Of a stretch of 64,000 nt of DNA, positions 63 to 54,868 are shown piece after piece. The notes under the pieces were generated by a model. That model had not been told where the DNA came from. It worked only from the letters and a program-made list of their open reading frames with translations, and searched no databases. A program made the translations under genes and the position numbers. The stretch is taken from assembly GCA_964016885.1 (NCBI GenBank), contig OZ024741.1:151032001-151096000 (forward strand). Direction: 5' to 3'. Position 1 is the stretch's first letter. The number at the start of each line of letters is the position of its first letter. This stretch comes from Eledone cirrhosa. Its lineage: Eukaryota.

Positions 63-281
63 TAGGAAAAATTATAAACTCGACGGCAGACCTCAAGCCG
101 TTTCGACGGCTATTTCTGGACTAAAAAACACATTTTTTTTTCAGTCCGGAAATAGCCGTCGAAACAGCTTGAGCTCTGCCGTCGGGTTTAAGCTTTTTCC
201 TATTACCCAATCTACTTCCCTAAGCATTGAGTACTCTGGTGCGTTATGGTCCATCTGGTTCCTTACCACACTTCCTTCGTT
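63..281 (+). mobile_element. Family A short fold-back element carrying the 3' half of a hammerhead, flanked by (TA)n
   Basis: Inverted arms 64-122 and 143-200, then a unique tail ending ...ccttcgt(TA)n. Contains GAA-stem III-GTC. Related copies at 15654, 25131, 34285, 38884 and 54656. Confidence 0.8.
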
Positions 282-417
282 ATATATATATATATAGGTT
301 TATCCCGGGTTCAATCGGGGGTAACCACAGTAAGTAAGGTACTCAATACATAGCAGAGTATAAATATTTAATGACTTCTACAGGACTAGAACTGTTTTAT
401 TCTGGAGAATCCATCAG

Positions 418-468
418 GGCTTCCTGATGATTTCTCCTGAATGAAACAGTTCTAGTCCCGTAGAAGCC
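418..468 (+). ncRNA. Type I hammerhead ribozyme (family E) inside hairpin 371-471
   Basis: ggcttc-CTGATGA-tttc/tcct/gaat-GAA-acag..ccgt-A-gaagcc. Stem I is ggcttc/gaagcc. The inverted copy has ctgt, which restores stem III. Partial copy at about 58020-58050 (-). Confidence 0.75.
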
Positions 469-486
469 ATTTCTATATTAAATATA

Positions 487-520
487 CTAGCAGAAAAACC
501 ACCCTTCAGGTGCATGTAGA
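487..520 (-). mobile_element. Helitron-like 3' terminus
   Basis: The minus strand reads a small hairpin followed by ...ttttctgCTAG, the same terminus as at 48195-48231. Confidence 0.5.
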
Positions 521-1139
521 TATGATACATCAAATGAAATCGTAATTGACAATATACACAGAAATTGAACGAAGTCTATGTTACACTGTCTTATGTAATC
601 ATTAAAGTAATCTATGATACATTTAAAAAAAGCCGATATTATATATAAACTGCATTAGGAGAAAATTAGCGACGGAAATATACGCGATATTTTTATAAGT
701 GTTGTAATATAACGGCCGCTAACCGAAAGTATTGACATTTGAAAATGTTAAAGAAGTGAATCTTTAAATAGGCTATAAAATATATTTAATCAACAGCCAC
801 GAAATTTAGCACATAAATTATGTAATATTCATTCATTATTTATTCAAAGTAATCCAACTCATTTTACAAACGGAGTAAAAATATATATTCTGGACGCAGT
901 CCCGCACTCCTTTCTTTATTATAGTTAAGATATACATATATGTGTGTGTATGTGTGTGTGTATGTGTGTGTATGTATATGTGTGTGTGTGTGTACGCATA
1001 TGTGTGTGTATATACATTTATATGTGTGTATGTGTATATACGTATGTATGTATGTGCGTAGAAAAGCAGGGCAACCCGGAGGAGAATATGAAAGCTAATG
1101 GACCTCTCTGTTAAATATAAATTCAGAAAAGTCCTATGC

Positions 1140-1810
1140 GATGATTGACAAAAGGGATGAGTTATGTACTTATCGCATTGAAGGCAATTGAAAGTTTCTA
1201 CGTGACAACTTACTACAGACTGTTGATGAGATTTGCAGCTGGAGCAAAGCACCATCCAAACTTAGGAGAACATGATAGTGGAGATAGGCATGGAAAAACT
1301 GGCAAAACGGGCGAGAGGCAGTAAAGATCAGTACTGGGTAGCTAAAAGAGATGCCAGACGACATGTGTTCTTAGCGCGTAAAGAAGCTGAAAGCATGTGG
1401 TTTGACAACACCTAGAGAGGATGTGAGACGTGAGGTGTTTTATATCTCAAAGTAGTGTGTCAGAGAAATTCAGGATGTTGTTGGGGAACAATATGGCCGA
1501 AATGACACCTTGCACTTAAAGTCACAAATGCTCACATGAAAGCGGTATGAAAATGCTTTTATAAAGGGTTGATGTATATGAAAAACGAGTGAGGGAATGA
1601 GAGACTAACCCCATCTGGCTCAACAAAGAGACCAACGATCGAAAGAGTGGCTAAGAAGAAGTCAAAGAGATGGAAAGTGGTAAAGTTTCTGGTCCACCAA
1701 ATGCTGAAACCAGGAGAAGTAGGACCGGAATTCATCACCCGCATAGTCAATCAACTAACATATGATTGGGTCGCCCCATGACTGGTGTAGCAGTACACTC
1801 ATTAATTGTT
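1140..1810 (+). pseudogene. Degenerate LINE (RTE-like) ORF2 fragment from the region between endonuclease and RT
   Basis: Broken frames give WKNWQ, KRDARRHVFLARKEAE, QDVVGEQ, MESGKVSGP, MLKPGEVG and DWCSSTLIN. Confidence 0.6.
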
Positions 1811-51376: not shown

Positions 51377-51444
51377 CATACATACATACATACATACATA
51401 CATACATACATACATACATACATAAAGTATGTATGTATGTATGT

Positions 51445-54260
51445 AAGTGCTTAATAAAAGATTCAGACGAAACCAAACATCAAAAGTGCTTAATAAAAGA
51501 TTCAGACGAAACCAAACATCGAAAGTGCTTAATAAAAGATTCAGACGAAACCAAACATCAGTCTATAGAGATATGAATGGCAAAATAATAAGTGTCACTG
51601 AGGCTCCATTCCAGAAAGACATAGATTCTTTTGGAGAAAATTATGGGGTGAAAAGAAGAATTTCAACCAAGGTGCAGTGTGGCTAAGAGAAATCCGAAAG
51701 AACTATTGCTCCTACACTACAACAAAAACATACGAAATAAGTGAGGGTACCCTTGAGACTGTGATAGGAAAACTCCAACATAAGAAAACACCAGGAAGAG
51801 ACATTATTGTCGGCTACTGGTACAAAAAACTAATATTCTATCGGAGACCTCTACCAACAAGTTCTTAAGGGATATATACTTATACCAGAATGGTTGTCAT
51901 TAGCACAAACGTTACTGGTCCCCAAGAACAAAGACACCCACTTGGCAAAAAACTACCGACCCATTGCATGCCAGAACCTGATGTATAAGATGTATACAGC
52001 CTACCTCAACCTATTCCTCCAAGATCGCTGTGAAAATAATAACATCAACACAGATGAACAAGCAGCTGGAAAGAAAGGGGTTTGGGGATGTGCTGAGCAA
52101 CTCCTAATCAACAAAACTGCGATGTAGGAGGTGCGACAACTTAGGTGGAATATGACTACAGTCTGGCTGGACTACAAGAAAGCTTTTGATTCTGTTCCCC
52201 ACTCTTGGGTGATAGAGGCCTTCCAACTTGCTAAAGTCCCAGACATTATTGTCATAGTCATAGAGAGGCTGTCTTATTCTTGGGCTACTATCCTAAGGTT
52301 AAAGACAGAGAGTGAGGACTCTATTTTCACTGATAAAATAAAATATTGCAGGGGTATATTTCAGGGGGACAGACTCTCTGTGATATTATTCATCTTGTCA
52401 TTAAACCCCTTGTCCTTTCTGCTCAAGAAATGTGAGGGATACATCATTGGCTCTCGGGAGGACAGAAATACGAACCTAACCCATAACTTCTTTGTGGACG
52501 ATCTGAAACTCTATGCCAAGAACATGGATGGGATGAAGAAAAATCTTGACCTGGTTACAACGTTCTCAAAGGATATAGGAATGGAGTTTGGCCAAGATAT
52601 GCTCATACATGACTGTAAAGCGGGGAAAAACAACAACCCAATCTAGCAACATTGTCATCAATGGCCTAACTGTCTCACGGATATCTGATGAGGACTGCTA
52701 CAGATACCTGGGGATAGATGAGAACATATCCTATAATGGTATCTGTAATAAAGAACGCGTAACCAGGGAATACTACACCCGATTAAGAAAGATCTGGTCA
52801 TCGGAACTCTCTGCGCAAAACAAAACAGTGGCTCACAATGTGTTCACTGTGCCTGTCCTAGCACCAACGTTTGGAATACTCAATTGAACGATAGACGAAA
52901 TCCGAGCCGTTGATGTTGGAAGACGAAAAATACTGAACAACACCGGAAACTTCCACATCAACAGTGACATAGACCGCCTTTACTTGAAACGTAAGCAGGG
53001 AGGTAGAGGCCTAACATCAGTCCAGACAACATTTGAATGTCGCATCATATCTCTCCGACAACATCTACGAACCTCGAAGCATAGGAGCCCGTTTCTCGAG
53101 CAAGTCTATCTGCATGAAACAGATAAGATCATGAGAGTTGGGAAGGAACTCCTTGAGAGATATTCCCTGTGTGATAATCAAAAACTCACACCCAGAGATG
53201 TCGCTCAGCAGTATTGCAGTGAATCCATGGATGAAAAATTGCATGCCTATCAGCAAAATATCATGCATGGATATGTTGCCAGGAAGCTCCAGAGTGAGAG
53301 TAATATAGATAAGGAAAGTAGTCTATCTTTGACCAACAACCGCTATATTGGCTCCCACTTTGAAGGATACGCTTTTGCAATCCAGGAACAGGAGATTAGC
53401 ACGAAATACCTGATTCACAAAAGAGATAGGGATGCAGGCAAAACACCTAGATGTGATAACAAGTGCAGACTCTGCAGAACTAACATCGGGGATATGACCC
53501 ATGTCATCAGCAGCTGTCCAAAGATGTCATCGCGGTACTATCTACCTATGAGGCATGATGTAGTGGCCAAAACACTGTACAAAAGATAGCCCCGATAATA
53601 AACACATTAAAAGCTACAACAATGTGGAAGACATCAATGTACATAATATGAAAGAGTACTGGTGAAATGTTCCAGTAAAAACCCCAATAAAATGCAGGCA
53701 TAACAGACCAGATATTATGATATGGGACAGGGAGAAGAAAACATGCGCAAAAGTGGAAATTAGCTGCCCAGCAGATGCCAATATAATATCAAAAATTAGT
53801 GAAAAGGAGAATATTTATGCAGAACTGATGAGAAATCTGCAGATACTCCACCCTGATTACACCTTCAGATTAATGCCTGTGATTATTGGGACATGTTAGT
53901 AACTGCCTCAATACAAATCTTGAGAAGCTAGGCTTCACAGGAACAGAAAGAACACAACTAGTTAGGAAATTACAAGTACAATCCATTAATGGAACATTAA
54001 AAATATGTAAAACATTCCAAACATTTTGCATCTAATAACTGCATATACACATGTACAGATACCAAGCATATACACATGCACACATACAACTCAAAACTTA
54101 CACATTCACACATACAATAACATCCATATCTACACATGCATGCATACATAAATATCTACCTAGTTGTTGTGTAAATTCCAATGAGAGAGTCTTGTGTCTA
54201 TGTTAGAAACCGACTCTCTCTCTATTGGTAAAACTTTGTGAAATTATAAAACCAGAAGAA
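51445..54260 (+). pseudogene. 5'-truncated R4/Dong-type non-LTR retrotransposon (RT plus restriction-like endonuclease)
   Basis: NYRPIAC, WLDYKKAFDSVPH, GIFQGD, FVDDLKLY, YRYLG, GGRGL, CRLC..HVISSC, RHDVVA, RPDI. Few stops or frameshifts, flanked by (CATA)n. Confidence 0.9.
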
Positions 54261-54335
54261 CATACATACATACATACGTACATATATATATATATATATA
54301 TATATATATATATATATATATATATATATATATAT

Positions 54336-54595
54336 ATATGAGAGACGTAAAATAAGAAAATTATAAAATTAACTTACTAAAAAATCAATTCCATTTGAAT
54401 GTCGCATCATATCTCTCCGACAACATCTACGAACCTCGAAGTAAGTTAATTTTATAATTTTCTTATTTTACGTCTCTCATATTATTGTTCTGCAACCCCA
54501 TGCATTGAACCACATTGTTAATAAGACAAAACCTATATATTTGCTAGCATTGATATGCATCTGTGTGTATATAAATGTTACTAGATATAAATTCC
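54336..54595 (+). mobile_element. Family B-related hairpin fragment
   Basis: Arms 54336-54378 and 54440-54482. The tail matches 27660-27820. Confidence 0.8.
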
Positions 54596-54655
54596 TTATA
54601 TATATATATATATATATATATATATATATATATATATATATATATATATATATAT

Positions 54656-54868
54656 AGGAACCAGTAAGACCCCGACAGCTGAGCTCAAGCCGTTTCGACG
54701 GCTAATTCTGGACTAATTATTCTAATAATATCCAGAATTAGCCGTCGAAACGGCTTGAGCTCAGCTGTCGGGGTCTTACTGGTTCCTATTACCCACTCTA
54801 CTACCTCAAGTATTGAGTACTTTGGTGCGTTATGGTCCACCTGGTTCCTTACCACATTTCCTTCGTTA
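54656..54868 (+). mobile_element. Family A fold-back element
   Basis: Arms at about 54656-54712 and 54731-54788, (TA)n flanks. Confidence 0.85.

Follow-up and report, generated by a model that had tools for sequence, protein, structure and literature searches.

Head-to-head stubs of a Penelope-like element in the octopus Eledone cirrhosa point to probable twin priming on one RNA

A stretch of 64,000 nucleotides of the Eledone cirrhosa genome (contig OZ024741.1, positions 151,032,001 to 151,096,000; "the window") contains four short hairpins whose arms resemble one half of a hammerhead ribozyme, raising the question of how such structures are made. A preliminary description, drawn up from the letters of the window, proposed that the first cDNA folds back on ribozyme stem II, primes its own second strand and is resolved at the target by TA microhomology, a scheme close to the self-priming set out in the accessible part of PMC3846280. 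Head-to-head architecture is already known for Penelope-like elements (PLEs), and it is the junction data that test the published hypothesis. The portions of PMC8557442 and PMC11167929 at hand leave open how PLEs form head-to-head copies and tails and which role hammerheads play in vivo; the young, short insertions of the present family number in the tens of thousands and make both problems countable. Our literature search returned no paper with such a junction analysis, and Repbase, subscription papers or the supplements of PMC8557442 may hold the family. The junctions of the short insertions (stubs) oppose self-priming for the present family and point to twin priming on one RNA. As read from the sequence, they likely reveal two 5' ends of RNA, of which one coincides with the predicted ribozyme cut.

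All four asymmetric hairpins of the preliminary description (63-282, 25130-25335, 38883-39063 and 54656-54868) were recovered, each composed of one tailed and one tailless arm (Table 1; parent coordinates count the G of GAAA as 0). As described, the tailless arm ends at ..TTCCTA in (TA)n in every copy, the arms join 5 to 21 nt 5' of GAAA, and each copy has a different loop. The tailed arm of copy 1 comprises, in order, the 3' strand of stem II, GAAA at 161, stem III, the GTC cut site, the 3' strand of stem I and an 80-nt tail. The claim that the two arms of a copy share their variants does not hold for this copy, whose arms are 86% identical. A solo tailed arm and an older relative, A2, had been overlooked. 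The Rfam scan of the window gave no hammerhead among the 150 of 249 matches listed, in which three of the four copies have no more than weak matches to hairpins of miRNA type. Such stubs would be easy to mis-annotate as MITEs or microRNA hairpins; the accessible text of an octopus repeat paper does not mention such hairpins.

Table 1. Family A and related features in the window and their extent on the parent element.
Feature	Position	Strand	Parent coordinates	Remarks
Copy 1, tailless arm	63..125	-	about -21 to +41	old subfamily
Copy 1, tailed arm	140..282	+	about -21 to +121	
Solo tailed arm	15657..15797	+	5' end near -18/-19	flanked by two (TA)n tracts
Copy 2, tailed arm	25130..25269	-	ends at -18	preceded by G absent from every read-through parent
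Copy 2, tailless arm	25274..25335	+	about -19 to +41	
A2, older relative, solo arm	34291..34420	-	stop near -18/-20 as well	80% identity
Copy 3, tailed arm	38883..39016	-	-12 to +121	
Copy 3, tailless arm	39016..39063	+	-5 to +41	
Family A tail-end fragment	39384..39404	-		within local duplication
Copy 4, tailless arm	54656..54716	-	-20 to +41	youngest subfamily
Copy 4, junction insert	54717..54730	none		not derived from parent sequence
Copy 4, tailed arm	54731..54868	+	-16 to +121	

The arms are indeed half hammerheads. The complete ribozyme is of type I, with a YUGANRA core, GAAA, a NUH triplet and three stems. The core reads UUGA(G/U/A)AA (U3-A8, position 7 variable) in 64 of 66 distinct arms, many of whose loci were chosen by a pattern that contained it. 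Across nine sequences 89.9% of the cells in the fold are paired. Both partners have changed in three pairs; these all lie in stem II and are supported mainly by two A2 copies. The 5' half of the ribozyme is absent from the hairpins as proposed, but the missing half is UUGA(G/U/A)AA and not CUGAUGA: the predicted CTGATGA sequence CTGATGAGACGGCTA has no match in the genome, the UUGANAA-type sequence ACCCCTTGAGAAGCTCGGCTA has 672. A gapped CTGANGA pattern gave 47 matches; the 30 loci inspected hold no parent, their matches being due to chance at junctions or to neighbouring elements. The predicted full-length parent with a hammerhead does exist, and the inversion axis maps to the 3' side of its stem II.

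This parent consists of tandem units of 3.06-3.55 kb (3,057, 3,542 and 3,552 bp) with an RT/GIY-YIG-type ORF that starts about 210 nt after GAAA. In L181 an open stretch of 710 aa holds YRDD and a C-terminal IYQ..YIG region, both identified by eye; it has 403 homologues, many of them with PF26215, and scans of it against Pfam and PDB gave no matches. The single ORF with RT and C-terminal GIY-YIG endonuclease, partial tandems acting as pseudo-LTRs, an inverted 5'-truncated copy and a one-sided tail are those of EN+ PLEs. RWR (a conservative change from RWK), DKT, CNCPDRSIC, CNLC and CKH are Hydra-clade motifs, and ATATA directly adjoins 22 of 28 matched tail ends, in line with the (TA)n targeting of that clade. 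Length (generally <3 kb) and a canonical hammerhead are Hydra-clade traits that are lacking; since the source says "generally", this mismatch marks a variant. Judged by these motifs, the hairpins are stubs of a PLE of Hydra-clade type. A non-LTR retrozyme was discarded as a candidate, the stubs being head-to-head and without the 5' half and the observed tandems carrying an ORF.

Genome-wide, exact core matches amount to 55,036 arms, compared with none for the reversed control. Arms match within a locus, in line with the preliminary description, diverging by 5.0% within and 10.2% between loci (as low in 0 of 10,000 permutations), and no alignment column among the 46 arm pairs examined is left/right-specific; this match within loci bears out the idea that the arms are remade at each insertion. 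The variants taken as copy-specific are mostly subfamily markers. The one at 54656 is diagnostic of a subfamily that numbers 4,899 exact tailless arms, whereas the blocks at 25131 and 38884 are rarer, each found again in one other arm among 94, and only three columns in the 46 pairs are nearly private to a single locus. Gene conversion could also account for the concordance within loci, as could the activity of a single subfamily at a time, and at least one insertion (L134) combines arms of two different subfamilies. Four apparent hairpins with arms of two families (L032, L038, L046, L049) were set aside as family A insertions at the TA flank of another element.

Palindromes are unstable, and their centre may be broken and repaired (centre-break revision). 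A MITE-like master hairpin copied as a unit, its loops later scrambled in this way, would draw on such instability and on a perfect palindrome seen again in 7 of the 30 top BLAST hits, a biased set. The same palindrome appears only once among 77 stubs of a position-ordered sample, the arms have no left/right-specific sites, and the position-specific extra G, the +23 class, the jump copies (all below) and the autonomous parent are left unexplained, so that we regard a master hairpin as very improbable. A MITE proper was rejected, given the lack of a shared interior, 64 distinct junctions among the 77 young stubs, unequal arms and a retroelement parent.

If arms are remade at each insertion, the junctions should tell how. 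Of 64 two-arm insertions 59 are clean pairs of a tailed and a tailless arm, the remaining five have one damaged end, and none joins two tailed or two tailless arms. The partner arm of L270 was judged on 1 kb only. Stem II snap-back would account for the match of arms within loci and for an axis within stem II. Fold-back geometry with at least 2 nt of pairing is found in 4 of the 77 young junctions, two of which sit at a real alternative hairpin around GAAA, and 13 of the first 51 listed short-centre hairpins are fold-back-like, at stem III or its palindromic loop. In 37 of the 77 young stubs, however, the tailless arm reaches further 5' (the tailed arm in 26, neither in 14), as it does in about 11 of 27 long copies judged by eye, and a tailless arm that reaches further cannot have been copied from the shorter tailed one. 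Not one of 91 young tailless arms ends between -23 and -99, so that the loop and 5' strand required for a fold-back were not copied, and the 12 junction inserts of at least 5 nt that were checked contain no sequence from upstream of the -18 stop (the "wall"). Junction overlap is 0-1 nt in 41 and inserts are present in 20 of the 77 stubs, and in several insertions (L210, L239, L286, L064, L065, L086) the arms have no sequence in common at all. Snap-back as the main route is therefore refuted, and we give the scheme very little credence. The fixed ..TTCCTA end, formerly ascribed to resolution by TA microhomology, appears to fit better with a second start of reverse transcription, as described for the PAc PLE in the accessible part of PMC11167929.

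Where the arms stop is equally informative. In about 85% of cases the stop lies between -10 and -22 (mode -18) and in about 3% at +23; in about 12% the two arms alike run past both points, giving long or tandem copies. Passage of the wall is common to both arms (6 pass/pass, 1 pass/truncated, 0 of 76 stub/pass; p=1.9e-8), for which reason retrovirus-like strand transfer at a redundant end was set aside. RT stalling at the apical hairpin was dismissed on energy: only a weak hairpin (-1.7 kcal/mol) lies at the wall, and reverse transcription passes stronger ones (-4.9 and -7.5). Two cDNAs made on two RNA molecules, in two ribonucleoproteins and each stalled at the RNA structure of stem II, would agree with the discordant arms of L134 and with stub ends that scatter over -10 to -22 and are weakly correlated between arms (Spearman 0.32, n=59). 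Yet if each cDNA stalled on its own, about 19 of 91 insertions should combine a stub with a read-through arm, and none with a wall stub was observed; likewise a handful should stop at +23 on both sides, and there are about 200. Together with the strict pairing of tailed and tailless arms and the weak wall hairpin, this makes two RNAs an unlikely source. A hand count of the first 51 listed short-centre hairpins gave 30 in which both arms end within +22 to +25, for the most part at +23, with inserts of A/T.

The wall itself carries an additional mark. Genome-wide, the base preceding -18 is the templated T in 12,686 arms, G in 3,253, C in 3,139 and A in 650; the base preceding -17 is least often G (G 1,053, T 1,717, C 2,103). 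None of 78 read-through arms has the extra G before -18, and 15 of 20 sampled extra Gs differ from the base of the partner arm; in a small junction control G is also frequent at other ends (10/13 versus 12/25, p=0.17). Since the ends of numerous arms fall at -19 to -22 or at -11 to -17, a start at this place would need to be scattered, or the ends would need to have been trimmed. In jump copies the sequence breaks off at the wall, resumes at +165 to +930 and breaks off at the wall once more, which means that the RNA of these copies extends into the ORF. Eighteen copies cover >1.5 kb of the ORF and run on through the tail (four of them from one array); of these, 16 read through the wall and none stops there; a simple capped monomer was thus not their template, and a second type of template must be assumed.

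These direct observations (the parent element, the pairing of a tailed with a tailless arm in each insertion, the variety of junctions and the stop points common to both arms) would probably be accommodated by twin priming on one RNA from two start sites, followed by end joining. The element's enzyme would cut the (TA)n tract, both DNA ends would prime reverse transcription, likely on the same RNA, at start sites 80 nt apart, and the two cDNAs, each stopping where the RNA ends, would likely be joined head to head. The -18 stop would correspond to a putative capped transcription start within stem II; an RNA starting there holds only the 3' half of the ribozyme and is therefore unable to cut. 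The +23 stop would be the RNA 5' end after hammerhead cleavage, and arms passing both points would have been copied from templates without a 5' end there, such as upstream-started multimers or circles. We are highly confident that the two arms are templated separately, quite confident that +23 is the predicted ribozyme cut, and consider a common RNA for both arms well favoured; that -18, with its excess of untemplated G, is a capped start seems somewhat probable. The class with both arms stopping at +23 suggests, at the level of sequence, that the ribozyme cleaves in vivo. A wider reading is tentative and on present evidence rather doubtful: with one RNA as template, an asymmetric RT pair would prime at the two ends of a single break, the position of the promoter inside the ribozyme would limit fresh transcripts to abortive stubs, the ribozyme would cut in vivo, and long and tandem copies would derive from ribozyme-made circular RNA. 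If true, self-cleavage would be a required step and not a passenger.

Several known systems come close, as far as the accessible portions of the cited papers describe them. Hydra-clade PLEs (Craig et al, 2021; PMC8557442) share the single ORF with a C-terminal GIY-YIG-type domain, the RW(R/K), DKT, CxCX5C linker, CxxC and CxH motifs, (TA)n targets, tandem pseudo-LTRs, an inverted 5'-truncated copy and a tail at a single end. They differ in unit length (<3 kb versus 3.06-3.55 kb here), tail (30-40 versus about 80 nt) and core (canonical versus U3-A8), and most copies here are 200-bp stubs; the tail is ascribed there to endonuclease resolution and the origin of the inverted forms is called undefined. 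The PAc Poseidon element of Anolis (Frangieh et al, 2024; PMC11167929), of another clade and with a predicted dimer, cleaves and extends both strands of AT-rich DNA, and similarly has two internal RT start sites that flank the tail just downstream of the hammerhead. Its ORF begins inside the ribozyme and not about 210 nt after GAAA, and the study found no reads ending at the ribozyme site, where a class of insertions ends here; the text at hand leaves inverted copies without explanation. In LINE-1 twin priming (PMC4859970) both target strands prime on the RNA, which yields an inversion with small junction indels, and an untemplated 5' G is likewise taken as the cap; here twin priming would be the rule, with a fixed second start, and both cDNAs copy the same stretch to give a palindrome instead of one rearranged copy. 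The Cercyon PLE hammerheads of Schistosoma (Cervera and de la Pena, 2014; PMC4209133), for which circles were proposed as tandem templates, share the type I fold, the U3-A8 core, a long helix II in which a base close to the foot is unpaired, and paired motifs on opposite strands, but have a minimal stem III in place of the full 6 bp found here, where most copies hold the 3' half only. Finally, the pLTR junctions of Penelope elements in Adineta vaga (Arkhipova et al, 2013; PMC3846280) show the same head-to-head inverted repeats, junction palindromes and optional tail; they were read as self-priming, against which the junction statistics argue for the present family.

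Four hairpins of family A, a family of short insertions (stubs) of a Penelope-like element (PLE), lie where the preliminary description had placed them, each with one tailless and one tailed arm joined head to head within (TA)n (see table). Counting from the G of the ribozyme GAAA as position 0, tailless arms end 3' with the TA at +40/+41 and tailed arms with the TA at +120/+121 (+42 and +123 in BLAST tables, where the match is carried on by the TA tract). Across the 3-Gb genome, 55,036 sites match the 21-nt core exactly and none matches its reversed control. Arm variants earlier described as copy-specific proved to be subfamily markers, the type at 54656 occurring in 4,899 exact tailless arms.

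Features in the window and related tandem arrays
Feature	Position (window unless stated)	Observation
Family A hairpin, copy 1	63-282	5' ends of arms (tailless/tailed) about -21/-21
Family A hairpin, copy 2	25130-25335	about -19/-18
Family A hairpin, copy 3	38883-39063	about -5/-12
Family A hairpin, copy 4	54656-54868	about -20/-16
Solo tailed arm, family A	15657-15797	
Older relative	34291-34420	
Second PLE-like family	38485-38875, 39120-39385, 61147-63455	complete CTGATGA hammerhead, head-to-head build as family A; both arms long at 61147-63455
Other ORF fragments	35481-36793, 41228-41763	related to parent protein, 31-53% identity
Inverted pair, ~200 nt	26644-27302	tRNA matches exceeding the Rfam threshold (minus strand, 26709-26780; plus strand, 27080-27151); may be a pair of tRNA-derived SINEs
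Nested long inverted repeats	32300-34245	TA tracts between; short palindromic units at 32300-32430, 32700-32830
Inverted repeat, ~65 nt, perfect	15180-15320	around TA tract, tail-to-tail; geometry opposite to family A
AT-rich minisatellite	16176-18267	43-bp unit, about 49 copies
Tandem parent arrays	L391-L394; C1:437200354-437210966	at least four full units, ~3.5 kb apart; candidate rolling-circle products or source loci

A mixed sample was drawn from the window, the adjoining 80 kb and the first 100 matches to the core on C1. Of its 64 two-arm insertions, 59 were clean pairs of a tailed and a tailless arm, the remaining five having one damaged end. Arms diverged by 5.0% within loci versus 10.2% between loci (47 pairs; none of 10,000 permutations as low). 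After one mis-projected pair had been dropped, no column separating tailed from tailless arms was found, and nearest neighbours were on the same side in 247 cases and on the opposite side in 234. The arms of one locus (L134) are clearly discordant, and four further pairs differ at one base matching another subfamily. Within-locus similarity and the lack of a side-specific column bear out the earlier proposal that the arms are formed de novo at each insertion.

The proposed route, in which the cDNA folds back on stem II and primes itself, did not hold as the main one. On a natural copy of the parent we placed 91 tailless arms from the youngest subfamily, 77 of them with a tailed partner nearby (a duplicate locus, L209, was dropped, two L208 rows probably represent a single event, the entries for L205 and L252 were hand-corrected, and some loci are shared with the mixed sample). 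Tailless-arm ends peak at -18, in stem II, and none of the 91 falls within -23 to -99, so that stubs contain no copy of the 5' strand or of the stem II loop (-23 to -26). In 37 pairs the tailless arm extends further 5' than its partner, in 26 the tailed arm does, and 14 are equal; among long copies, as judged by eye, the counts are about 11, 15 and 1. Because an arm lacking a sequence cannot template it, a tailless arm cannot derive from a shorter tailed cDNA, nor a tailed arm from a shorter tailless one. The 77 junctions, 64 of them distinct, comprise 21 blunt joins, 20 with a 1-nt overlap, 16 with 2-6 nt and 20 with inserts, and only four match fold-back geometry. Overlaps of at least 3 nt (9/57 against 2% simulated for blunt joins) exceed expectation, indicating that microhomology was used in some joins. 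We therefore favour twin priming, with two cDNAs likely made on one RNA.

Whether the stop at -18 is passed is common to both arms (p=1.9e-8, 83 tailless arms with partners): for 11 read-through tailless arms, six partners read through, one was cut within the tail and four were not found, and for 80 stub arms, 76 partners did not read through and four were not found. The stop point hence depends on the template, in keeping with a single RNA and its 5' end. Eighteen copies span >1.5 kb of ORF and run on through the tail; 16 of these pass -18 and none stops there, so their template has no end at this site; it may be either an upstream-started long multimer or a circle as proposed in PMC4209133.

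The hairpin at -18 is weak (-1.7 kcal/mol), and stronger ones are passed. The site lies within TYAGTY, which we take to resemble the initiator consensus. Genome-wide, the preceding base is a templated T in 12,686 cases, G in 3,253, C in 3,139 (some of them templated, in one subfamily) and A in 650; before -17, no untemplated base is rarer than G (22%, against 46% before -18), and none of 78 read-through arms has the G before -18. Of 20 sampled Gs, 15 differ from the partner's last base, two of these being joined directly to (TA)n. An untemplated 5' G is the accepted cap sign in LINE-1 and SVA (PMC4859970), and the corresponding region of Drosophila Penelope contains an internal promoter (PMC2377424). 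A capped start at -18 is thus somewhat favoured, with a small, non-significant junction control for G (10/13 vs 12/25) and the spread of arm ends from -11 to -22 counting against it. Copies that stop at -18, resume after a jump at +165 to +930 and end once more at -18 (5 of 30 loci, two being one insertion, plus L023) show that this RNA reaches into the ORF. In another TA-targeting family (L024, L025, L039, L056), stubs retain the whole hammerhead, their stop lying ~90 nt further upstream; the stop point is accordingly family-specific.

Insertions whose two arms each end 3' of the core, left out of the other samples, were searched separately (683 strand matches, ~340 insertions). Among those listed, by hand count, both arms end at +22 to +25, mostly exactly at +23, the base after GUC, in 30 of 51; in 13 the join lies in stem III or in the palindromic loop of that stem, and eight are mixed. 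Locus L410 has two ends at +23. All 14 distinct short-centre insertions inspected are tailed-tailless pairs (a flag on L422 arose from a neighbouring copy). Most inserts at +23 consist of A or T, versus G at -18. Extrapolated, the class would number roughly 200, compared with 6,769 tailless arms passing the site in the same subfamily group; at about 3%, it far exceeds the expectation for two independent stops. We consider +23 quite likely to be the ribozyme cut; insertion ends at this predicted site suggest cleavage in vivo.

A parent carrying CTGATGA, as had been predicted, does not exist (0 matches), but a full-length parent with another core does, in long copies and tandem units. Position-ordered loci gave the true upstream half as stem I, UUGA(G/U/A)AA and stem II, one variant having 672 exact matches. 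This core is the U3-A8 form, as reported in Cercyon PLEs (PMC4209133), and its position 7 is the one varying between subfamilies. Pairing of the three stems (89.9% of cells over nine sequences; three double-sided changes, in stem II) gives modest support, the set being small and related. Tandem units measure 3.06-3.55 kb, with ribozyme and tail preceding the ORF; on their upstream side long copies extend into a 710-aa open stretch, and the parent copies examined contain frameshifts or stops. The predicted protein carries motifs listed for the Hydra clade.

Overall, the earlier observation was mostly right, and the replacement mechanism is better supported, with testable RNA ends. Self-priming has been proposed as the origin of the palindromes (PMC3846280), reverse transcription has been shown in vitro to start at two sites that bound the tail (PMC11167929), and a bioRxiv retrozyme preprint deals, in the part seen, with tandem forms. 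In the literature searched we found neither a junction-level test of self-priming versus twin priming nor genomic traces of a capped start within a ribozyme or of cleavage at a ribozyme site. PLEs typically leave copies that are inverted and 5'-truncated and have a tail on one side only (PMC8557442), and the family A parent is a variant within a known class.
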